This document shows positions 1 through 10,719 of a stretch of 10,956 nucleotides of DNA, piece by piece (position 1 is the first letter of the stretch; every line of letters starts with the position of its first letter). The translations under genes were made by a program, and so were the position numbers. Origin of the DNA: a virus; the UHGV virus genome UHGV-0334393; one strand, given 5' to 3'. The notes under the pieces are model-generated. The model worked only from the letters and a program-made list of their open reading frames with translations. It had not been told where the DNA came from and did no database searches.

Positions 1-77
1 TCTTCGCCGCCGCCTTCAGGGCAGATGAAACCAAACCCTTTGGCATTGTTGAACCACTTAACAGTACCCTTTTCCAT
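1..77 (-). CDS. cspD: Cold-shock domain protein, 5' end only (first 25 codons; gene continues left of the window)
   Basis: Reverse complement of 1..77 translates as MEKGTVKWFNNAKGFGFICPEGGGE, matching from memory the N-terminus of E. coli CspD and the cold-shock domain in general. Start codon is the complement of 75..77. Confidence 0.7.
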   Translation of the reverse strand, partial: MEKGTVKWFNNAKGFGFICPEGGGE

Positions 78-320
78 GCTTCGACATCCTTCGCAAATCT
101 TATACAAGTAAGATGGAATAAACCGGGGTCAGAGAGGGGGCTGTTCAAAACCTCGCCAACTCTAGAAATACAATTTAGAGAATTAGGGCGAGCCGTCAAG
201 CATTTGACAGGGGCCAGGGGGCAGGTATGAATCAAAAATTTGAAGCAGTTAACGCTATTGACAGGAATGTGACAGATGTCGCTGATGCCAACGATAGATG
301 ATAGTTATTTATCAGTTAGT

Positions 321-481: not shown

Positions 482-1720
482 ATGAGCAGGGCAATTCATA
501 GACTTAGCGACACTCTTTTACGAAAATTAAGCGGATCACCAACCACAAAAAACACCTTTTTTAATGATGGTGGCAACCTTAGCGTAAGGCATTCAACCAA
601 TGGCCTGTTAACCTGGTATTTCACTTACAGGGCCGGAACAGGCAGGAAGGTAGCCCCTGAACGTCTGAGGCTGGGAAATTATCCAGATTTGAGCCTGAAA
701 GCAGCCAGGGAAAAAGCGTCGCAGTGTCGCGCCTGGCTTGCTGAGGGTAAAAATCCACGCCATGAGCTTAATCACACCGTACAGGAAGCGTTATCACCTG
801 TTACGGTTAAGGAAGCGCTCACTTACTGGCTTGAATCGTACGCGAAGGAAAAGCGCACAGATTACGAATCTCTGAAAAGCCGGATCAATACACACATAAT
901 CAGCCATATTGGTGCTATGCCGCTGGAAAAATGCGAGCTACGCCACTGGCTGACCTGTTTTGATCAGCTTGCTAAGCGTAATCCGGTATCAGCAGGATTT
1001 TTGTTACAGGTATGCAAGCAGGCGCTTAAGTACTGCCGCAAACGACGCTACGCAATTACCAACGTTCTAGATGATATGGTTGTAGGTGATGTTGGGAAAA
1101 AAGCAGAAATAAGCGAGCGCGTACTAACAAACAAGGAGCTTGGGGAATTACTCCGCGCCCTGGATGAAAAAATTTACCCACCGTACTACAGCGCCCTGAT
1201 TCGCCTCCTGATTGTCTTCGGATGTCGTACCACTGAGCTAAGACGCTCTGAGGTCCAGGAATGGGATTTTAAAGAAATGCTCTGGACCGTGCCGAAAGAA
1301 CATAGCAAAACGAAGGTAGCAATATTCAGGCCAATACCGGAAGCGATCTTGCCGTTCGTAACGAAGCTGGTGGAGCAGAACAGGTACACGGGATTATTGC
1401 TCGGAGAACTGAAAGGGCAATCATCCGTATCAGAGTACGGAAGAACGGCACACAGACGTATTAATCAAGCCCCCTGGACGTTGCACGACATCCGGCACAC
1501 GTTTACAACGATGCTGAACGATTTAGGCGTGGATCCTCATGTAGTGGAGCAGCTAACCGCGCACCAGTTGCCAGGAATGCAACGAGTCTATAATCACTCC
1601 CGTTATCTCGATGCAAAACGTGACGCTCTTAATCTATGGGTTGAGCGTCTCGAGCTTCTCCAGAACAATGATGAAAAAATCGTTGTTATGACCCCGAGAA
1701 TTTACTCCCAAAATTCTTGA
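482..1720 (+). CDS. int: Tyrosine site-specific integrase (P4/CP4-57-like family)
   Basis: 412-aa ORF. The C-terminal region has the tyrosine-recombinase pattern (LHDIRHTF, then RVYNHSRY with a candidate catalytic Tyr). The N-terminal region (FNDGGNLSVR, WYFTYR) resembles the integrase arm-binding domain. Position at the island edge next to a chromosomal gene fits. Confidence 0.9.
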   Translation: MSRAIHRLSDTLLRKLSGSPTTKNTFFNDGGNLSVRHSTNGLLTWYFTYRAGTGRKVAPERLRLGNYPDLSLKAAREKASQCRAWLAEGKNPRHELNHTVQEALSPVTVKEALTYWLESYAKEKRTDYESLKSRINTHIISHIGAMPLEKCELRHWLTCFDQLAKRNPVSAGFLLQVCKQALKYCRKRRYAITNVLDDMVVGDVGKKAEISERVLTNKELGELLRALDEKIYPPYYSALIRLLIVFGCRTTELRRSEVQEWDFKEMLWTVPKEHSKTKVAIFRPIPEAILPFVTKLVEQNRYTGLLLGELKGQSSVSEYGRTAHRRINQAPWTLHDIRHTFTTMLNDLGVDPHVVEQLTAHQLPGMQRVYNHSRYLDAKRDALNLWVERLELLQNNDEKIVVMTPRIYSQNS

Positions 1721-1798: not shown

Positions 1799-2129
1799 AT
1801 GTGTCAAGTATTGAAAAAATTTGAAATGTCTTCTTCTGAGTTCTTATTCTCTGTTTCTTGATTGTTCCAACACCTGATGGTTTATCTATTTGTTTTTAAT
1901 GAGGTAATTCAGGTGTCATGCCAAATGACGACATTTTTTGTTGCGTCGCTTAAAAACTCGTGACACGATTTTAAACACTAACGAGCTTCTACGAACCTTA
2001 GCGAACAAAGCCTTTAGCATGGTTGTGTTTTTAATTTAAGAGGTGAAAAAGAATCTAAGTAATATCCGATCTCATATATCTACAGCTAAGAGAAAAGTTT
2101 ATATACGTAATTTTTATGTAGGTTTTTGT

Positions 2130-2339
2130 ATGCGTGAAATAAATGAAGATCGCGTAATCCGTGAGGATGAATGTCGTAAGTTAACTGGAGTGTGCCGCAC
2201 TACACGTTACGAACTGGAGAAAAAAGGGCGCTTTCCGTCACGTCTTAATCTGGGCGGTCGTTCTGTAGGGTGGCTGCTGTCCGAGGTTATGGAATGGGTT
2301 AAAAGCAGGGATCGTATTAATTCAGGTAAGGCAGCGTAG
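2130..2339 (+). CDS. alpA: AlpA-family (phage/prophage regulatory protein) DNA-binding transcriptional regulator
   Basis: The segment RKLTGVCRTTRYELEKKGRFPSRLNLGGRSVGWLLSEVMEWV matches the AlpA/Phage_AlpA helix-turn-helix core (LGGRSVGW...E...W). The tracked ORF starts at a GTG at 2043 that overlaps its own Shine-Dalgarno; the in-frame ATG at 2130 gives a typical ~69-aa AlpA size. Start is uncertain. Confidence 0.7.
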   Translation: MREINEDRVIREDECRKLTGVCRTTRYELEKKGRFPSRLNLGGRSVGWLLSEVMEWVKSRDRINSGKAA

Positions 2340-3274: not shown

Positions 3275-3494
3275 AATACCCTTTGATGTTCTTATTCATT
3301 CTGAAAACGCATTAATTAAAGCGCGCGAAATGAATGTGTTGTTAATTAAATTAATTGAAGCAACGGAAGCTGGAGAAGAATCTTCGTCATTAATGCTTGC
3401 CGCCGTTCAGACATTACTATCGCCTGTAATTGATGAACTGGATAAGGCGATGGCAATTCACGAAAATAATAACGCGCCCCACACCGGAGAATAA
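3267..3494 (+). CDS. Hypothetical protein (75 aa), predicted helical
   Basis: Start overlaps the stop of the upstream ORF (translational coupling); GGGGGTGAG Shine-Dalgarno. No recognisable homology. Confidence 0.55.
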   Translation: MHKIPFDVLIHSENALIKAREMNVLLIKLIEATEAGEESSSLMLAAVQTLLSPVIDELDKAMAIHENNNAPHTGE

Positions 3495-3499
3495 AAATA

Positions 3500-3799
3500 A
3501 TGAAACTTAAATATTCTGGCTTAACTGCCAGTGGCAACACTCACCCTAAATTTACGCGCGGTGATATTTACCGCGACCAGTACGGCGGCACGGTAATGAT
3601 TAAGGGCGTGGCGGGACGGTGCGTAACTTACCGCCGTGAAGGTTACGAATATGATTGCGTGATGCCTGTTTATCAGTTCCGGCGTGATTTTTCTCTGGTA
3701 CAGACCGCGCCGCATAACGTGCCCACCAGCAACGCCAGAGCACGGGCAAACATCCAGAAGCTGAAAACAATGATTAACGGATTCAGGGGTAAAAAATGA
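3500..3799 (+). CDS. Hypothetical protein (99 aa)
   Basis: GGAGA Shine-Dalgarno 9 nt upstream; its stop overlaps the primase start (ATGA). No recognisable homology. Confidence 0.6.
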   Translation: MKLKYSGLTASGNTHPKFTRGDIYRDQYGGTVMIKGVAGRCVTYRREGYEYDCVMPVYQFRRDFSLVQTAPHNVPTSNARARANIQKLKTMINGFRGKK

Positions 3800-5928
3800 A
3801 ACTGGCACCGAACGTAAAACAGCAGTCACGCGGCATAAAACACAAAGAAACAGAAGTCATTATTTTTGCGGGTAGTGATGCCTGGTCACACGCAAAACAA
3901 TGGCAGGAACATGACGCGCGTATGGCCGGAGATAATGAGCCTCCTGTGTGGCTTGGGGAGCAGCAGTTATCCGAACTGGATAAGCTGCAAATTGTGCCGG
4001 AAGGCAGAAAATCAGTACGCATATTCAGGGCCGGACATCTTGAGCCAGTAATGATCAAGGCGATTGGTCAGAAACTGGCGGCGGCAGGCGTACAGGATGC
4101 AAATTTTTACCCTGAGGGAATGCACGTTCAGAAGGTGGAGAACTGGCGCGAATATCTGGCCCGTGAGCGGCAGAATCTTTCTGATGGTCTGGTTATTGAG
4201 CTTCCGGTAAAGAAAAAAGATACCGGAAGTCATAGCGATGACGAATTAAAGCCACGCGTTGAAAGTCGCGCCGATGGTGTTTTCTGGGTAACGCCCAAAG
4301 TGGATAAGCAGTCAGGCGAAATTATCCGGCCTGAGACGTGGTTATGTTCTCCGCTTGAACTACTGGGAACGGGGACGATCGGTAAAGAGCATTACCGCGT
4401 GATGCGCTGGAAAAAAACCGCAAACCATGAAGTCATCACAATGGCGATCCCGTGTGGTGGTATCGGCGACCGTGACGGCTGGCGGTTACTTAAAGATCAC
4501 GGGCTGAACGTGACAACCAACGGCAAATACAGGGCAATCCTGGCGGACTGGATGCAGTTAAGCGGAAGCCATGAGGAATGGCAGTTAAGCACAACAACGG
4601 GCTGGCATTTTGGCGCGTACATCATGCCGGACGGTTCGATCATTGGTGATTCTGAAAAACCGATCCTGTTTACCGGAAAAAGCGCCGCGATTAACGGTTA
4701 TTCCGTGGCGGGTACGGCGGAGGGCTGGCGCGAGAGTGTGGCGCGGCTGGCTGGCGGTAATGCCTCAATGATGCTGGGTGTGGCAACGTCACTGGCAGCG
4801 CCTTTAATTGGCCTTGTGGGTGCTGACGGCTTCGGGGTGCATCTTTTCGAACAGTCATCGGCAGGTAAGACCACCACGCAGAACATCGCATCAAGTTTAT
4901 GGGGAGAGCCGGACGCGCAGCGGCTGACCTGGTACGGCACGGCGTTAGGTATTGCCAATGAGGCCGAGGCCCATAATGACGGGCTTTTACCACTGGATGA
5001 GATAGGCCAGGCCGGAAATGCGCGGGAAGTGTCAACGTCTGCTTATACGCTGTTTAACGGTTCAGGGAAATTGCAGGGGGCGAAGGATGGCGGCAACAGG
5101 GAGATCAAACACTGGCGAACGGTGGCAATCAGCACCGGAGAAATGGACGTTGAGACATTCCTCAAAAGTGAGGGGATAAAAGTTAAGGCGGGGCAGCTTG
5201 TCCGACTGCTTAACGTTCCGATGGAAAAAGCCACGAAATTTCACGAATACAGCAACGGTAAGGAACATGCTGACGCGTTAAAGGATGCCTGGACAGCAAA
5301 TCACGGGGCGGCGGGTCGTGAGTGGGTTAAATGGCTGGCAGGCCACCAGCAGGAGGCAAAGGACACGGTAAGGGAATGCCGCGAACGGTGGCGCAACCTG
5401 ATACCGGAGAGTTACGGCGAGCAGGTCCACCGCGTGGGTGAACGTTTCGCCATACTGGAGGCCGCGCTTGTGCTTTCCGGTCATGTAACTGGCTGGGTCG
5501 TGCAGGAATGCCGCGACGCGATACAGCATAACTTTAATGCCTGGGTGAAGGAGTTCGGCACGGGTAACAGGGAATTTAAACAGATGGTTGAACAGGCTGA
5601 GGCGTTTTTGTCGTCGTTTGGGTTTAGCCGCTACCTTCCGTACCCCAATACAGATGAGCGTGATTTACCGATTAAAGAGCTTGCCGGATACAGAAAAGGG
5701 AGCATTCGCAACGAAGATGACGAGATGCGCTATTACACGTTCCCGCACGTGTTTGAGAGTGAGATAGCGAAGGGATTTAATCCGGCGCATTTTGCGCGTG
5801 CCCTGGATGCTGCCGGAATGCTGGAGAAGGGAAGCGATCGCCGATACAAAAAAAAGGCGCTGGGCAAGATTGGGGGTAAGCAGCATGTTTTTTACGTGCT
5901 GATGTTCCAGCCTGATGATGAAGATTAA
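3796..5928 (+). CDS. Replication initiator, primase/helicase type (DUF927/D5-like; SF3-like ATPase domain)
   Basis: 710 aa. Walker A SSAGKTT and Walker B LLPLDEIG motifs in the central region. N-terminal region is consistent with a toprim/primase-like domain. An iteron origin lies immediately downstream, as in PICI pri-rep modules. Confidence 0.9.
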   Translation: MKLAPNVKQQSRGIKHKETEVIIFAGSDAWSHAKQWQEHDARMAGDNEPPVWLGEQQLSELDKLQIVPEGRKSVRIFRAGHLEPVMIKAIGQKLAAAGVQDANFYPEGMHVQKVENWREYLARERQNLSDGLVIELPVKKKDTGSHSDDELKPRVESRADGVFWVTPKVDKQSGEIIRPETWLCSPLELLGTGTIGKEHYRVMRWKKTANHEVITMAIPCGGIGDRDGWRLLKDHGLNVTTNGKYRAILADWMQLSGSHEEWQLSTTTGWHFGAYIMPDGSIIGDSEKPILFTGKSAAINGYSVAGTAEGWRESVARLAGGNASMMLGVATSLAAPLIGLVGADGFGVHLFEQSSAGKTTTQNIASSLWGEPDAQRLTWYGTALGIANEAEAHNDGLLPLDEIGQAGNAREVSTSAYTLFNGSGKLQGAKDGGNREIKHWRTVAISTGEMDVETFLKSEGIKVKAGQLVRLLNVPMEKATKFHEYSNGKEHADALKDAWTANHGAAGREWVKWLAGHQQEAKDTVRECRERWRNLIPESYGEQVHRVGERFAILEAALVLSGHVTGWVVQECRDAIQHNFNAWVKEFGTGNREFKQMVEQAEAFLSSFGFSRYLPYPNTDERDLPIKELAGYRKGSIRNEDDEMRYYTFPHVFESEIAKGFNPAHFARALDAAGMLEKGSDRRYKKKALGKIGGKQHVFYVLMFQPDDED

Positions 5929-5950: not shown

Positions 5951-6290
5951 TGCGGGTTATGCGGGTTATCCTGTGTATAAGTGTATTAAGTGCATGAATA
6001 TAAAGGAAACCAATAACCCGCACGTAACCCGCAAAAGGGCATTTATAACCCGCAAAAGCACGATTATAACCCGCAGGCGAATAACTGAAGTAACACCGGA
6101 CAGTCATGCGTAACCCGCAGAAAAAAAACCGTTTGCGGGTTATTTTGAGCGTTTTGCGGGTTACGTGGTGAGCAAATAATAAACAGGGTGTTTTGCAAAA
6201 TACTGATATAAAAGGATAAAAAATGGTTAGCACGCTAAGATAACCCAATAACCCGCATAACCCGCACATGTTTCTATATATATATAAATT
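5951..6290. repeat. Replication origin: iterons TAACCCGCA / TGCGGGTTA in both orientations (copies at 5951..5968, 6013..6075, 6111..6119, 6134..6164, 6241..6266) followed by a (TA)n unwinding-element-like tract (6275..6290)
   Basis: At least twelve copies of the 9-mer or close variants counted directly, with irregular spacing and an AT-rich tract. Located just downstream of the replication protein. Confidence 0.75.
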
Positions 6291-6300
6291 GAGGTGGCAA

Positions 6301-6552
6301 ATGACCAGAACACGCAGAGACAGAACAGAGCCAAAATATAAAGCGTTAGACATGACTGAGCACACCTTAAAGGTGGCAATCAGAACGATAGACCGCCACA
6401 CGCGGGAAGGATACGCGAAGGAACATCCCGACCTGATAAGCGCATTCATGACCACAGCGGCGGCAAACTTTGCCACGCTGACAGAACGGGAGATTGCCGA
6501 AGCGGAACAGGTAACAACCATCAACGTTAAAACCGGAGAGGTGGAATCATGA
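6301..6552 (+). CDS. Hypothetical protein (83 aa), translationally coupled to ssb
   Basis: GAGGTGG Shine-Dalgarno 5 nt upstream of the ATG at 6301. The tracked ORF start at 6268 lies inside the iterons and has no Shine-Dalgarno. Its stop overlaps the ssb start (ATGA). Confidence 0.6.
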   Translation: MTRTRRDRTEPKYKALDMTEHTLKVAIRTIDRHTREGYAKEHPDLISAFMTTAAANFATLTEREIAEAEQVTTINVKTGEVES

Positions 6553-6959
6553 CAGCACAGATAGCCGCTTACGGGCGGCTGGTGGACGACCCGCAGGTAA
6601 AACAGACCAGCAAGGGCACACCGATGACGCTGGCGCGTATGGCGGTCCCCCTTCCGTGCAGCCAGGCAGATGACGGAACGGCTACGTTATGGCTGTCCGT
6701 CATCGCATTTGGCAAGCAGGCCGACTTCCTGGCTAAACATCAAAAAGGCGACGTTGCCAGCGTATCTGGCGTGATGCAGATAAGCCAGTGGACCGGACAG
6801 AACGGGGAAACGCGGCAGGGTTATCAGGTTATTGCAGACAGCGTAATCAGTGCCCGTGCGGCACGTCCTGGCGGGAACAGACGCAAAACCACAGGCGCAC
6901 AGGGTAATCAGCCACCAGCGGGAGACGATGACCCCTACGGTGATGATATTCCGTTCTGA
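6549..6959 (+). CDS. ssb: Single-stranded DNA-binding protein (short SSB with OB fold and acidic C-terminal tip)
   Basis: 136 aa. Collinear similarity to E. coli SSB (GRLVDDPQVKQT..., W..VIAFGKQADFLAKHQKGD..., ...W.DQ.G..R) and the hallmark C-terminal DDIPF tail after a Gly/Pro/Gln-rich linker. Confidence 0.85.
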   Translation: MTAQIAAYGRLVDDPQVKQTSKGTPMTLARMAVPLPCSQADDGTATLWLSVIAFGKQADFLAKHQKGDVASVSGVMQISQWTGQNGETRQGYQVIADSVISARAARPGGNRRKTTGAQGNQPPAGDDDPYGDDIPF

Positions 6960-6967
6960 ACGCACAG

Positions 6968-6989
6968 GCCGGAGAAAATCCGGCTTTTT
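6968..6989 (+). terminator. Rho-independent terminator (stem GCCGGA / TCCGGC, loop GAAAA, then T5)
   Basis: Hairpin plus T-run immediately after the ssb stop codon. Confidence 0.7.
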
Positions 6990-6995
6990 GTACCC

Positions 6996-7038
6996 AAAAA
7001 AAGCCCGATAAGTACAGGAGGAAGCTTATCGGGCTTTT
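6996..7038. terminator. Bidirectional rho-independent terminator (10-bp stem GCCCGATAAG / CTTATCGGGC flanked by A7 and T4)
   Basis: Perfect 10-bp stem with a 12-nt loop; A-run on the 5' side and T-run on the 3' side. Confidence 0.6.
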
Positions 7039-7112
7039 GCTTACGAGGTTAACAGCATGGTGACTACTGTTGCTGTAAATCATTTCATAATTTGCAACGC
7101 AACTCAATTTTA

Positions 7113-7161
7113 TTGCGCAAAATGCAATCATGATTATAATCATGACTGGATGAACATCCAG
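7113..7161 (+). promoter_or_regulatory. Promoter P1 for the capsid operon: -35 TTGCGC (7113..7118), 16-bp spacer, -10 TATAAT (7135..7140) inside a perfect 18-bp palindrome TCATGATTATAATCATGA (7128..7145), followed by the inverted repeat CTGGATG-AA-CATCCAG (7146..7161)
   Basis: Hexamers and palindromes read directly; positioned about 55 bp upstream of the first capsid-operon start codon. The palindrome over the -10 suggests operator control. Confidence 0.55.
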
Positions 7162-7196
7162 TTATGATTTTTTAAGTCAAAGAGGAATTTCTGACT

Positions 7197-7403
7197 ATGG
7201 CAGAAGAGAAAAAAGGTGGTGTTTCGGTGTACATAAGCCCCGAAATCGTGGAGGTGCTCAAGCAGCGCCACAAAAAAAACTATGAGGCTGGCGTAGCGGC
7301 TGGACTGGATCCGCTGATGACGCCGGAGCCGTCGATAGGTTCACTTGTGCGCTCTTATTTACTTGCGGCGCTTGGGATGCATAAAAATTATGGGGGTGAA
7401 TAA
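7197..7403 (+). CDS. Hypothetical protein (68 aa), first gene of the capsid operon
   Basis: AGAGGA Shine-Dalgarno; stop overlaps the downstream start (TAATG). No recognisable homology. Confidence 0.6.
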   Translation: MAEEKKGGVSVYISPEIVEVLKQRHKKNYEAGVAAGLDPLMTPEPSIGSLVRSYLLAALGMHKNYGGE

Positions 7404-8458
7404 TGACAGGCAAAGCAACGGCACTTAACACTAACCAGCTTTTCATGTACCTGAATCGCGGGGATATTGCGGATTTTAAATTCAGCCCTCTGTTTACCAC
7501 GCTGTTTTTCCCGAACGTGGCGACATTCAGCACGCAAAACATCATGCTGGATACCCTGGACATTGAAGAAGTCACCATGTCGGCGTTTTGTTCGCCTATG
7601 GTTGGCAGCCAGGTACAGCGCGATAAAGGGTACGAAACCAGCACAATTAAACCTGGCTACATGAAGCCAAAGCACGAAATCGATCCAACGAAAACCATCA
7701 TGCGCATGGCTGGAGAAGATCCGGCACAGCTTAACGACCCTACCTACCGACGTATGCGCCTTATTACTGGCAACATGCGCCGCCAGATAAACGCCATTAA
7801 AGCGCGCGTGGAATGGCTGGCGGTGAATGCGATAACGACCGGAAAAAACATCATTGAGGGCGAAGGCATAGAACGCTATGAAATCGACTGGAAAATACCG
7901 GAAAACTGCATCATAGAGCAGGCCAAGGGTAAAAAATGGTCCGAGCATGATAAAGATATTTACGATCCAATCTATGACATCGAACTATACGCAGATCAGG
8001 CAGGTTGCCCCGCCAACGTCATGATTATGGGCGCTGAGGTATGGCGCACGTTACGCAGCTTTAAAAAATTCCGCGAACTGTACGATCTTTCCCGTGGTTC
8101 AGAATCCGCCGCAGAACTGGCCTGTAAAAACCTGGGTGAAGTAGTGAGCTTTAAAGGCTATCTGGGCGATATTGCCCTTATCGTCTATTCCGGCAAATAC
8201 ACTGACAGCGACGGTACCGAAAAATATTTCCTTGAGCCTGATTTGCTGGTCCTGGGTAACACCAACAACAAAGGGCTGGTGGCCTATGGTGCGATTATGG
8301 ATCAGGAAGCTGTAAGAACAGGCGCAACGCAAAACATGTACTACCCGAAAAACTGGATTGAGGACGGCGATCCGGCGATTGAGTACGTGCAGACGCACAG
8401 CGCACCGCAGCCGGTACCGGCAGACATTCGCAAATTTGTTACCGTCAAAATTGGTTAA
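7403..8458 (+). CDS. Major capsid protein, lambda gpE family
   Basis: 351 aa, collinear with lambda gpE (341 aa) from memory: FKFSPLFTTLFFPN vs FKFDPLFLRLFFRE; PGYMKPKHEIDP vs PGYVKPKHEVNP; YPKNWIEDGDPAIEYVQTHSAP vs YPKNWVTTGDPAREFTMIQSAP. Good Shine-Dalgarno (GGGGGTGA). Confidence 0.9.
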   Translation: MTGKATALNTNQLFMYLNRGDIADFKFSPLFTTLFFPNVATFSTQNIMLDTLDIEEVTMSAFCSPMVGSQVQRDKGYETSTIKPGYMKPKHEIDPTKTIMRMAGEDPAQLNDPTYRRMRLITGNMRRQINAIKARVEWLAVNAITTGKNIIEGEGIERYEIDWKIPENCIIEQAKGKKWSEHDKDIYDPIYDIELYADQAGCPANVMIMGAEVWRTLRSFKKFRELYDLSRGSESAAELACKNLGEVVSFKGYLGDIALIVYSGKYTDSDGTEKYFLEPDLLVLGNTNNKGLVAYGAIMDQEAVRTGATQNMYYPKNWIEDGDPAIEYVQTHSAPQPVPADIRKFVTVKIG

Positions 8459-8469
8459 CTGGGGATTCT

Positions 8470-8805
8470 ATGAACACTCCATACATTGAGTTATTTGCAG
8501 GCAGTCAGCAGGTATCAACGACGCTGGTACATTTTGCCGCTGATGCTGGCTTTATTCAGGAATTTACCCCGCTGATGCTGTCAGACAATGGCGAGTTTAA
8601 GCCGTGGGATGGTCAGGAATCTGGCAAGGCTGTTTATCTGACTTCGTACCCCGTGGACACGTCGACGCAGAAATCAGCACAGTGTTACAAGACGGGGATA
8701 TTTAATATCGCCGCCGTAAACTGGCCTGAGAGCGCCGACACTGACGCGAAAAAATGCGCCGCCTTTGCGGGTTCTGGCGTATCCGTTCAGCCGCTGGCGC
8801 GATAA
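8470..8805 (+). CDS. Head decoration protein, lambda gpD family
   Basis: 111 aa versus lambda gpD at 110 aa. Shared motifs TPLMLSDNGEFKPWDG vs TPLMLDTSSRKLVAWDG and KKCAAFAGSGVSVQ vs KKRTAFAGTAISIV. Immediately downstream of the gpE-like gene. Confidence 0.85.
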   Translation: MNTPYIELFAGSQQVSTTLVHFAADAGFIQEFTPLMLSDNGEFKPWDGQESGKAVYLTSYPVDTSTQKSAQCYKTGIFNIAAVNWPESADTDAKKCAAFAGSGVSVQPLAR

Positions 8806-8817
8806 GCAGGGGAAACG

Positions 8818-9231
8818 ATGGCAACGAATGAAAGCATCATGGCGCTACCGCTGGCGAGTAAATTTAAAGCAGAAGCGCGGGCAATGGCTGACAGAGGTTT
8901 ATCAACCTACGAGGCCGTATATCAACTCAACAAACTGGAAGAGCAGGACAAGCCGCGCGCTGATGCGATTATGGCGCTTCATGAACATAACGACTATCAG
9001 CCGCTGTTACGTGCAATGGCAAACGTGCCATGTATTAGCGTCGATAATGCTCGTGAAATCCTGAACATGACCATAGAGCAGGAGCGCCCAAAGGTTGCGC
9101 CGGAGCTTACCGCAGCCTTTGAAAACTTTATGGACATGCACAGCCCGAAAGCCGTATCACCCGGCATGGCATACGACGGCAGAAACCAGGGCGATGAAGG
9201 CGACGTCGATCGCATACTGAAAACCATCTGA
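8818..9231 (+). CDS. Hypothetical protein (137 aa), last gene of the capsid operon
   Basis: AGGGGAA Shine-Dalgarno; followed directly by a terminator. No convincing similarity to lambda FI, W or Nu3 by eye. Confidence 0.7.
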   Translation: MATNESIMALPLASKFKAEARAMADRGLSTYEAVYQLNKLEEQDKPRADAIMALHEHNDYQPLLRAMANVPCISVDNAREILNMTIEQERPKVAPELTAAFENFMDMHSPKAVSPGMAYDGRNQGDEGDVDRILKTI

Positions 9232-9237
9232 CATAAG

Positions 9238-9260
9238 GCCGGAGAAATCCGGCTTTTTTT
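9238..9260 (+). terminator. Rho-independent terminator (stem GCCGGA / TCCGGC, loop GAAA, T7); near-identical copy of the hairpin at 6968..6989
   Basis: Hairpin plus T7 run 7 nt after the stop of the 137-aa ORF. Confidence 0.75.
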
Positions 9261-9330
9261 ACGGGTCCTTTCCGGCATATGGACCCGTTACGGGGCGGCG
9301 ACCTCGCGCGTTTTCGCTATTTATGAGCCT
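9261..9330 (+). other. cos site 1 (plus orientation): lambda-like cosQ (9261..9292), cosN 12-nt cohesive-end sequence GGGCGGCGACCT (9293..9304), and the start of cosB (CGCGCGTTTTCGCTATTTATGA), diverging after about 9328
   Basis: ACGGGTCCTTTCCGG...GTTACG|GGGCGGCGACCT|CGCG.GTTTTCGCTATTTATGA matches the lambda right-end/left-end junction as recalled. Downstream sequence up to the terS start differs from lambda cosB. Confidence 0.8.
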
Positions 9331-9437
9331 TTTCAGGGGGGTGGTGGTGGTTTTGTTGTTTGCTCTATCTTTATGAATGAAAAGGGAAAGATGCAAACAA
9401 TACACCAACCTGAAGCAGTAATTAAGTTGGTGTATTA

Positions 9438-9980
9438 ATGAAATCGCACCTGATGAACAAAAAAAACATGGCGAAAAGCTGCCGTGTAAGTGCGACAGCG
9501 TTCGACAAGTGGGGAGTGACTCCCGTTGAACGTAAAGGCCGTGAGGCGTTTTATGATGTTGCCAGCGTGATAGACAATAGGGTTAACAATGCAATTAGCC
9601 AGCTTACAAACGACAAAGGCGATATTGATGATGATGAACTCTTACGAGTCAGGATCAGATTACTGACAGCACAGGCGGAGGCGCAGGAACTTAAAAACGA
9701 GCGCGATCGCGGTGACGTGATTGATACTGAGTTTTGCCTGTACGCGCTTTCAAAGCTGGCGAGTCAGATTTCATCAATCATGGACAGCCTCCCGCTTACT
9801 ATGCAAAGGAGCTTCCCACAGATTACCCCCGCCATGCTGGACAGGCTTAAAAGGGAAGTGGTTAAAGCCTGTAATGCCAGTGCCAGAGTTGCCGACAACC
9901 TCCCACAGATACTGGCTGATTACTTGAAAGAAACAACCGGAAACGTACCGGAAAAGTTGCTACAGAAGAAAGGCAAGTAA
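9438..9980 (+). CDS. Terminase small subunit, lambda Nu1 family (island-encoded TerS)
   Basis: 180 aa versus Nu1 at 181 aa. Strong central similarity: LLTAQAEAQELKNERDRGDVIDTEFCLYALSKLASQISSIMDSLPLTMQRSFPQI vs Nu1 LTRAQADAQELKNARDSAEVVETAFCTFVLSRIAGEIASILDGLPLSVQRRFPEL. The N-terminal HTH region is also alignable (NKK..., YD.A.VI). Lies directly downstream of cos 1, as in lambda. Confidence 0.85.
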   Translation: MKSHLMNKKNMAKSCRVSATAFDKWGVTPVERKGREAFYDVASVIDNRVNNAISQLTNDKGDIDDDELLRVRIRLLTAQAEAQELKNERDRGDVIDTEFCLYALSKLASQISSIMDSLPLTMQRSFPQITPAMLDRLKREVVKACNASARVADNLPQILADYLKETTGNVPEKLLQKKGK

Positions 9981-10006
9981 CAGAAGCGCAATTATTGAAC
10001 AAAAAT

Positions 10007-10202
10007 GAGAAAGGATCTGATAATGGCATTTTCTGGCTAAAATGCCTCGTGTCAGATCCTTTCTTTTTTTAATATTTTCATTGTTAAACAGTCTGTTACA
10101 GAGAAGAAGAACGGATCTGACTTTTGCCGGAAAATTTTCATAAACAGATAAAAACCGCGAGGTCGCCGCCCCGTAACGGGCCATAATTCCAGGAAGGACC
10201 CG
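10007..10202 (-). other. cos site 2 (minus orientation): cosQ-like (10172..10202), cosN (complement of 10160..10171), and a canonical lambdoid cosB with three R-site-like repeats (AGAAAGGATCTGA 10008..10020, TCAGATCCTTTCT 10052..10064, AGAACGGATCTGA 10108..10120) and an AT-rich IHF-like segment
   Basis: The reverse complement reads GGGCGGCGACCTCGCGGTTTTTATCTGTTTATGAAAATTTTCCGG...CCGTTCTTCTTC..., near-collinear with the recalled lambda left end through cosB. The middle repeat is inverted relative to the outer two. Confidence 0.8.
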
Positions 10203-10235
10203 ACGACACCAGACTATCAGAACGATGGGGGCACA

Positions 10236-10517
10236 ATGACAGAAGCCGAAATACTGGGATTAATCCGCCGCGTTGCCGGAATCAGCCAGCAGGTTGACGA
10301 ACAGGCCACGCAGCCGGACAGCGTGACCGCTGAAAATTATGCGCGTGTTGTTGCGGAGGTGATGCGCCGTGATGGTATAGAACTTAATGGCGTGGATATG
10401 CGCAACATACGAACCAGAGTTCTTGAGTTGCTGGCCTACCGTCGCCGTGTGGAGATGTATCGGGAGAAGGAGAAAATAACGTACCACTGGAAGAAGCCGG
10501 AGCGGTTGCGGCGGTAA
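10236..10517 (+). CDS. Hypothetical protein (93 aa)
   Basis: GGGGG-type Shine-Dalgarno 6 nt upstream of the ATG; plausible amino-acid composition; no recognisable homology. Confidence 0.5.
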   Translation: MTEAEILGLIRRVAGISQQVDEQATQPDSVTAENYARVVAEVMRRDGIELNGVDMRNIRTRVLELLAYRRRVEMYREKEKITYHWKKPERLRR

Positions 10518-10719
10518 CTGGTTGATATTCCCGACGGACCAAAAATGGGTGGCTACATCCCTCGCTTCTGAGGACTGTTAACAAGCTGCCTGAAAGACAG
10601 TCACAAACTACGAAATTTTCGCAGTTTAATTAATGATCAGCTTAATCGCTAACCCGCTGATATTTTCGGAAACCTCAATTTGAGGAAGTCGGCGCGGTAA
10701 CTCGCTGAACTTTAAGCAA

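Follow-up and report, generated by a model that had tools for sequence, protein, structure and literature searches.

The 10,956-nucleotide virus genome UHGV-0334393 (one strand, 5' to 3'; here referred to as the window, meaning the whole stretch of DNA that was analyzed) carries at positions 9,238 to 10,235 the packaging-specificity module of a cos-type phage-inducible chromosomal island (PICI) of Escherichia coli belonging to the EcCICFT073 family. In this module, a gene for a full-length Nu1-family small terminase (terS) lies between two opposed, lambda-type cohesive-end sites (cos1 and cos2), and the window is a TerS-type variant of the already known family in which the island's own small terminase replaces the published Rpp protein. 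Our preferred reading, to which we give a probability of about 0.7, is that an island-specific, private combination of cos1 and terS, together with an optional helper-type cos2, provides the island with two packaging routes via a lambda-like helper.

The two-cos architecture is already known; what is added here is the terS-type variant, an explanation for cos2, and evidence on the breakpoints of the cassette. Published work left cos2 of EcCICFT073 unexplained, as a site that is functional, not required, and costly with the phages lambda and phi80. We offer a testable account in which cos2, in the window, in its relatives, and in EcCICFT073 itself, would be a copy of a real phage cos that is swapped between helper classes and often discarded, whereas cos1 would be locked to the island's own specificity protein. 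A smaller new observation concerns the natural inversions and cassette swaps that reshuffle packaging specificity: both break at the cosN core. Knowing which helpers are able to move TerS-type islands bears on island spread, and roughly 9% of the complete genomes of E. coli, O157:H7 included, contain islands of this kind.

Two opposed cos sites around a full-length terS gene

A first-pass annotation of the window, made from its letters, had described two lambda-type cos sites in inverted orientation around a Nu1-like terS gene, and both sites were found where it had put them. The cosN pattern ACGGGGCGGCGACCTCGCG has exactly two matches in the window, at 9290-9308 on the plus strand and at 10156-10174 on the minus strand, while 0.01 matches are expected in shuffled sequence and none of 200 shuffles contained two. 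The same region is present in 483 of the 5,426 complete E. coli genomes that were searched, and on these two grounds we rejected chance and assembly artifact as explanations. A repeat finder delimited the inverted repeat arms to 9262-9337 and 10127-10202 (76 nt, 79% complementarity); the annotation had correctly recognized inverted sequence here but had underestimated it at about 50 bp. Inside the arms lies a perfect 25-nt inverted core, and the two cosN cores are offset by 866 bp (Table 1). We aligned both sites with the cos sequences of lambda, N15, and PhiR5_1 and with both cos sites of E. coli CFT073. Each window site has a cosQ, a 12-nt cohesive-end sequence (GGGCGGCGACCT) identical to that of lambda, and an I2-like segment. 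The cosQ of cos1 matches that of lambda at 13 of 13 positions, in agreement with the lambda-like cosQ and cosN that had been annotated for this site, and the cosQ of cos2 does so at 11 of 13.

The 180-aa protein encoded by terS matches the Pfam family Phage_Nu1 (PF07471) with 83 bits against a cutoff of 30, covers PHROG 57 (terminase small subunit) over residues 1 to 174, and can be aligned over its full length with N15 gp1 and lambda Nu1. N15 gp1 is its closest phage relative, although the overall identity is only 46% (36% for lambda Nu1). In the DNA-binding domain (the first 50 residues), 28 of 45 positions are identical to N15 gp1, compared with 13 to 18 of 45 or 46 for lambda- and 21-type TerS proteins, and the island's ATAFDKWGV resembles the VQAFDKWGV of N15 gp1 in the N15/Monarch group (Feiss et al. 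2015, PMC4669245). In the C-terminal 55 residues, the best match is PhiR5_1 TerS (28 of 50 identical), with similarity to lambda as well. Judged by these alignments, the island TerS is a mosaic of an N15-like DNA-binding domain and a PhiR5_1-like C-terminal region, and from the domain similarity we infer that it would bind both its own cosB and the helper large terminase.

The possibility that this protein is an Rpp was considered and rejected. It is longer than the Rpp proteins (139 to 154 aa), and its BLASTP comparison with CFT073 RppA yields an E value of 1.3. RppA covers only the DNA-binding portion of PHROG 57 (residues 7 to 47), and no PDB match was found for TerS at an E value of ≤0.01 although RppC structures are deposited. 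Since TerS retains the Nu1 C-terminal region that is missing in Rpp, it should not need helper TerS.

At cos1, the cosB (cosB1) lies directly upstream of terS in 80 of 80 IMG/VR relatives, with 84 to 100% identity; these loci were chosen by a TerS 82 to 100% identical to that of the window. The first two cosB1 repeats are kept among the relatives, and cosB1 is absent from the phages in a collection of 50,697 records. Compared with lambda-type cosB, the repeats have a different sequence, are more compact, and are partly conserved. This cosB had been annotated as diverged, and it does differ from that of lambda, but it is a separate conserved repeat set rather than a decayed lambda cosB. Its R3-like element has TTGTTGTT in common with N15 R3 (GAGGTTGTTGTT at bp 48-59; PMC4669245), which fits the N15-like DNA-binding domain of the island TerS, and its three-repeat layout resembles the "complex" cosB of Monarch.

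The cosB of cos2 (cosB2) is complete and of phage type. Its R elements, CAGATCC(G/T)TTCT, lie at bp 53-64 (+), 108-119 (-), and 153-164 (+) from the cohesive end; those of lambda, CGTTTCC(G/T)TTCT, lie at 53-64, 109-120, and 155-166. From cosQ to R1 (cosQ-cosN-I2-R3-I1-R2-R1), cos2 runs colinear with lambda cos, with R3, a putative integration host factor (IHF) site, an inverted R2, and R1 at the fixed spacing of a complex cosB; the A/T-rich I1-like spacer contains a weak IHF-consensus match with one mismatch at 10070-10082. R1 begins 28 bp past the terS stop codon, and both this position and the three-R structure had been read correctly in the first-pass annotation. The R motif is CAGATCC where lambda has CGTTTCC. 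Unlike lambda cos, cos2 borders on the 3' end of a terS convergent with it, is followed by no terminase operon, and has a second, opposed cos 866 bp away.

The cosB2 R elements are identical in a lambdoid prophage of strain 118UI, where they lie directly upstream of terS-terL, and they also occur in the ETEC1746 prophage, adjoining a different cosN. The TerS proteins of both prophages have a DNA-binding domain that differs from that of the island TerS. By this comparison, cos2 is a complete cos whose specificity class is that of a real phage. A reading of cos2 by the island TerS was judged unlikely: cosB2 can change with no change in terS, as in one relative (L016) whose terS and cosB1 are 100% identical to those of the window and whose cosB2 is of another type (the second type below), and the island DNA-binding domain is identical at only 14 of 45 positions to TerS of the 118UI prophage, whose cosB is that of cos2. 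The earlier proposal of two TerS specificities, with the island protein acting at cos1 and the helper protein at cos2, thus gains support from the inseparability of cosB1 and terS, the independent swapping of cosB2, the occurrence of the cos2 R elements in a prophage cos followed by terS-terL, and the reading of EcCICFT073 cos1 by an island protein (PMC6739421).

Some further variation was seen at these sites. The R3 equivalent of Rpp-type islands, CACCACCACCAC, is published (bp 54-65 from the cohesive end of CFT073 cos1; 25581-25592 in the EcCICFT073 locus, L003). Read on the opposite strand, it equals the (GGT)n tract found at bp 48-58 in the window cos1 (9340-9350), and the DNA-binding domains of RppA and TerS are unlike each other. 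The G-run/(GGT)n tract in the R3-like element varies in length among the close relatives L020, L021, and L023 (for example, GGGGGGTGGTGG and GGGGGGGGGGGTGGG), which may reflect slippage inside a protein-binding site. At cos1 of loci L058-L068, L070, L085, L091, L093, and L094, the same cosB1 and terS accompany other 12-nt cohesive ends (GGGCGGAAGGCG, GGGCGTCAGGCG, GGGCGGCAGACG, and GGGCGGCTGACG), and in L085, L093, and L094 the cohesive ends differ between the two cos sites of one island. In a different island type (L011, 1895-3400; E. coli SW071618), a DUF1441/phrog_141 TerS-like gene is followed by a cos with cosN GGGGGTACGGGTACGCGC and a window-type cosB; a second, inverted copy of I2 lies only 374 nt away, with no annotated gene between.

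Exchange and inversion of the cassette

For comparison with the type island, EcCICFT073 (Fillol-Salom et al. 2018, ISME J, PMC6092414; 2019, Mol Cell, PMC6739421) was taken from the CFT073 chromosome as locus L003. Its module has the same backbone as the window, with flanks of about 91% nucleotide identity, and the same plan: cos1 (+), a specificity gene, cos2 (-), the same cosQ arms, and a non-phage cosB at cos1. It differs in that the window has a 180-aa Nu1-type TerS and not the 144-aa Rpp, and in both cosB sequences. In the CFT073 sequence, cos1 (+) lies upstream of rppA and cos2 lies inverted downstream; the orientation of the two sites is not mentioned in the 2018 and 2019 papers or in the 2018 supplement. 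The first-pass annotation had presented opposed cos sites as something not expected in a satellite, a framing that was wrong because the two-cos architecture is published, with two functional cos sites in EcCICFT073 (PMC6092414) and the same inverted layout in the CFT073 genome. In the literature searched, including the 2018 and 2019 papers and a 2022 review, no analysis of the cos sites of TerS-type E. coli PICIs was found.

Homology between the window and CFT073 breaks and resumes at the inner ends of the repeat arms (9334 and 10127). The cosQ arms are the same in the two islands, while the I2 segments differ and go with the cassette. These breaks and the switching of I2 indicate that the whole segment between the cosN cores has been exchanged, rppA for terS.

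The second cos site is itself variable. We scored the spacer between terS and the 93-aa open reading frame (ORF) that flanks the cassette on the right in 69 IMG/VR relatives. The window-type cosB is present at 13 loci and a second cosB type (CATGTCGGTAC / GAAACGACACGG / CATGTCGTTTCTC) at another 13, plus L019, where it is cut off by the contig end. Two loci have a 21-like type (a CFT073 prophage cos was used as the 21-type comparison), and 11 have a different cosQ, cosN, and cosB. Only cosQ and half of cosN remain at 9 loci (73-nt spacer), and 21 are without any cos2 (11-nt spacer). Truncation or absence in 30 of the 69 relatives marks cos2 as an accessory part and not a core requirement, and at least four cosB2 types switch independently of terS. 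Absence of the second cos from close relatives, or its origin in an assembly artifact, had been named in the first-pass annotation as evidence that would count against its proposal; the former was found in part, and the latter is excluded by the 483 complete genomes. The cos2 cosB of EcCICFT073 (CCATGTCCGGTTTCT, GAACCGGACATG; L003 26135-26285) has R-like repeats at lambda-like positions and is 86 to 89% identical to the cosB of real prophages (L095; L096 2400-2690), in one of which it is followed by terS-terL. The 2018 study had reported no identifiable phage cosB in EcCICFT073 (PMC6092414).

The sequence expected after inversion of the cassette, with the flip at the cosN core, was built and searched in the same complete genomes. 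The terS cassette is inverted in 5 genomes as one uninterrupted match, compared with 483 in the window orientation, and the rppA cassette is inverted in 15 genomes and direct in 68. Two inverted terS islands lie at different chromosomal sites and have different integrases and cosB2 types. In both, the junctions fall inside the 25-bp core, and the left flank consists of the cos1-type cosQ arm followed by the cos2-type I2 and cosB. The same terS allele was seen both ways round (L014 and L039): one inverted island has a terS 100% identical to that of a direct-orientation IMG/VR locus. Since neither inverted allele has the other as its nearest relative, and one has an identical direct counterpart, inversion has occurred more than once and, in at least one case, recently. 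Around 9200-10250 no recombinase ORF was found, and the window has no recombinase other than the integrase, 8 kb away. Because there is no invertase gene nearby, we read the inversions as occasional recombination or as cutting and religation at cosN and not as a programmed switch. The inversion of the terS segment that had been suggested from the repeats is therefore a natural evolutionary event with junctions in the cosN core, and nothing points to a programmed one.

It is conceivable, though in our view improbable, that the helper terminase itself moves the cassette. Cutting at both cosN sites would free a piece of ~0.87 kb with a 5'-GGGCGGCGACCT overhang at both ends and leave the backbone with two complementary ends. 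Religation could then take place either way round, or the cassette of a co-resident island or phage could be inserted, without homologous recombination. The junctions in the core, the backbone-bound cosQ arms, the travelling I2, and the two-way terS allele are compatible with such cutting and flipping or swapping and do not require it; short-homology recombination in the 25-bp core accounts for the swaps and inversions equally well.

Two proposed packaging routes and the alternatives

EcCICFT073 carries two cosN sequences, and each cloned site permits plasmid transfer by lambda and phi80; deletion of cos1 lowers transfer, deletion of cos2 raises it, and the double deletion abolishes it (PMC6092414). 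The product of c1503, RppA (144 aa), complexes with helper TerS, and the complex recognizes the cosB of cos1 and not that of cos2 (PMC6739421).

What the comparisons show directly is the layout of the sequence, the way its parts are linked and vary, the occurrence of natural inversions, and the match to the published family; we infer how each protein would pair with a cosB, in which direction packaging would run, and why the sites are opposed. The island TerS would bind cosB1 through its N15/Monarch-like DNA-binding domain and recruit the helper large terminase to cosN1 through its Nu1-type C-terminal region, and packaging would proceed from cos1 rightwards along the replicated island concatemer. 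The helper TerS-TerL would use cos2 directly and package leftwards, as with cos-type Staphylococcus aureus pathogenicity islands (SaPIs) and cosmids. In lambda, a packaging run ends only at a cosQ-cosN that is correctly oriented. A run that starts at one window site would meet the other site from its cosB side, without cosQ upstream; with the sites opposed, neither should therefore end the run of the other, and whole island units would be packaged either way. The second site would be an optional addition that suits particular classes of helper; its cosB type is exchanged, and the site is frequently lost. If both sites of a single unit were cut, the concatemer would be broken, which may explain why deletion of cos2 raises EcCICFT073 transfer and why cos2 is lost so frequently. 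The cosN core common to both sites is also where the cassette as a whole is exchanged (rppA for terS) or turned around. A further suggestion in the first-pass annotation, bidirectional packaging into the flanking chromosome, found no support; a recent paper on lateral transduction that was checked deals with staphylococcal pac systems only.

The closest parallels outside the family are found among SaPIs. The cos-type SaPIs (SaPIbov5, and SaPIbov4, which is said to have two putative cos sites) likewise carry a satellite copy of the helper cos (cited in PMC6092414 and PMC5052747). They differ in being Gram-positive, with an unrelated cos, an HNH-dependent terminase, and no island TerS paired with a private cosB. 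In pac-type SaPIs with their own TerS, a satellite small terminase likewise redirects the helper large terminase to the satellite site, but packaging is headful (pac) and not by cos cutting, and a separate protein, Ppi, is needed against the phage TerS.

Several observations weigh against the two-route reading. In the 2018 assay, the islands of strains IHE3034 and 18098, which encode TerS, showed no transfer, and the higher transfer of EcCICFT073 by lambda and phi80 after deletion of cos2 means that this site can be a cost with some helpers (PMC6092414). The relatives do not conserve the R1-like repeat of cosB1, and the R3-like element lies about 9 bp farther from cosN than R3 of N15 or lambda, a spacing reported to be critical. 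A promoter scan revealed no convincing sigma-70 promoter for terS inside the cassette, and the gene is intact when inverted. The window-type cosB2 occurs at 709 places in 652 genomes with a second copy being rare, so co-residence with a matching prophage is not the rule.

Other explanations for cos2 and for the inverted layout were weighed against the two-route reading. The second site could mainly be a decoy, with many helper-cosB copies on the replicating island absorbing helper TerS-TerL and causing interference rather than transfer. This would be consistent with the exact phage-type cosB of cos2, with the replication upon induction known for the family, and with the dispensability of EcCICFT073 cos2, whose deletion raised transfer (PMC6092414). 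However, terminase on a complete cos would cut and package the island anyway, which makes a decoy inseparable from a second packaging site; the interference caused by EcCICFT073 maps to Rpp and not to cos2 (PMC6739421); and 30 of 69 relatives have a truncated cos2 or none. We consider the decoy unlikely.

That frequent loss or truncation, along with the phage cosB sequence of cosB2 and the finding that cos2 is not required in EcCICFT073 (PMC6092414), would also suit a functionless leftover of recombination with the phage or other island that brought the specificity cassette. Where present, though, cos2 is complete, from cosQ and cosN through I2 to three exactly spaced R elements. About 480 E. 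coli genomes retain it, other complete cosB types have replaced it instead of its decaying, and in EcCICFT073 it supports plasmid transduction (PMC6092414); we rate this explanation slightly below the decoy. The lowest probability goes to a programmed invertible switch for terS expression or packaging direction within a population. Both cassette types are found in both orientations in nature, the junctions lie within the 25-bp core, and one terS allele is identical in both orientations, as such a switch would have it. Against it stand the lack of an adjoining invertase gene, with the distant integrase as the sole recombinase of the window; the rarity of the inverted terS cassette, which is apparently fixed in whole assemblies; and the nature of the arms, which are ordinary cos sequence and not recombinase sites. 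The terS ORF is moreover intact both ways, which counts against an on/off design.

The island backbone

The genes of the window are those of an EcCICFT073-family PICI, with an integrase at one end, AlpA, and a primase/replication module (Table 1), and the set of int, AlpA, primase, single-stranded DNA-binding protein (SSB), and head genes is that of the Gram-negative PICIs of Fillol-Salom et al. 2018 (PMC6092414). The family pattern further comprises an ori, a length of about 10-12 kb, and the lack of tail and lysis genes, and the window fits it. In a blastn comparison, the window is colinear with EcCICFT073 at 96% identity over 3469-4217, 93% over 6373-6959, 91% over 6963-9334, and 91% over 10127-10529, and nucleotide identity across the 5' part of the primase gene, SSB, the head genes, and both cassette flanks is 90 to 96%.

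Table 1. Positions of the cassette elements and backbone genes in the window
Feature	Position	Strand	Details
Tyrosine integrase (int)	482-1720		Phage_integrase and Arm-DNA-bind_3 matches
AlpA	2043-2339		59.9 bits
DUF927 primase	3796-5928		Pfam
SSB	6549-6959		
Lambda-E-like major capsid protein	7403-8458		
gpD-like decoration protein	8470-8805		
137-aa ORF	8818-9231	+	Left cassette flank, backbone gene; phrog_1999; CFT073 counterpart directly upstream of rppA
Terminator-like hairpin	9235-9259	+	GGCCGGA-GAAA-TCCGGCC and T7 run; between upstream operon and cos1
cos1 cosQ	9263-9275	+	GGGTCCTTTCCGG; identical to lambda cosQ
cos1 cosN core	9284-9308	+	Cohesive end GGGCGGCGACCT at 9293-9304
cos1 I2-like segment	9305-9337	+	Ends at inner end of left repeat arm; CFT073 homology stops at 9334
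cosB1, island-private cosB	9340-9437	+	Inverted repeats I7 and I15
cosB1 R3-like element	9340-9363	+	GGTGGTGGTGGTTTTGTTGTTTGC (GGTGGTGGTTTTGTTGTTTGC)
cosB1 inverted R2-like element	9393-9410		GCAAACAATACACCAACC; partial inverted copy of R3-like repeat
cosB1 R1-like element	9426-9436		GTTGGTGTATT
terS	9438-9980	+	Full-length Nu1-family small terminase, 180 aa
cosB2, complete phage-type cosB	10008-10119	-	R1 10008-10019, R2 10053-10064, R3 10108-10119
cos2 I2-like segment	10127-10159	-	Inner part of right arm; CFT073 homology resumes at 10127
cos2 cosN core	10156-10180	-	Cohesive end is complement of 10160-10171
cos2 cosQ	10189-10201	-	GGGTCCTTCCTGG; 2 mismatches to lambda; identical to CFT073 cos2 cosQ arm
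93-aa ORF	10236-10517	+	Right cassette flank, backbone gene; phrog_1561

The hairpin upstream of cos1 was missed by the promoter/terminator scan and confirmed by folding (-14 kcal/mol, z = -4.6). On the plus strand, the R1/R2 palindrome after terS, with its U7 run, folds at -33.7 kcal/mol and resembles a terS terminator. Together, these two structures make the cassette look like a self-contained unit. The hairpin AGGCCGGAGAAA(A)TCCGGCTTTTT is present twice in the window, at 6966-6989 after the SSB gene and at 9236-9259 after the 137-aa ORF.

The 137-aa ORF shows a weak match to the C-terminal end of a head maturation protease (phrog_53, positions 494-567 of 583, E value of 1.5e-9), which would make it Nu3/scaffold-like, and with the E-like capsid and D-like decoration genes it forms a small head module on the island. 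PDB searches with the 137-aa and 93-aa ORFs gave no useful match, a cross-species survey of genome contigs with the 93-aa flank protein gave no match, and neither att repeats nor a tRNA were found in the window. Iteron-like direct repeats (TAACCCGCAAAAG) at 6007-6066 and 6242-6257, directly downstream of the DUF927 primase gene, are probably the replication origin of the island. O157:H7 strains, among them TW14359 (L009), carry this TerS-type island with the double-cos cassette adjacent to phoQ, which is the site of EcCICFT073 in CFT073.

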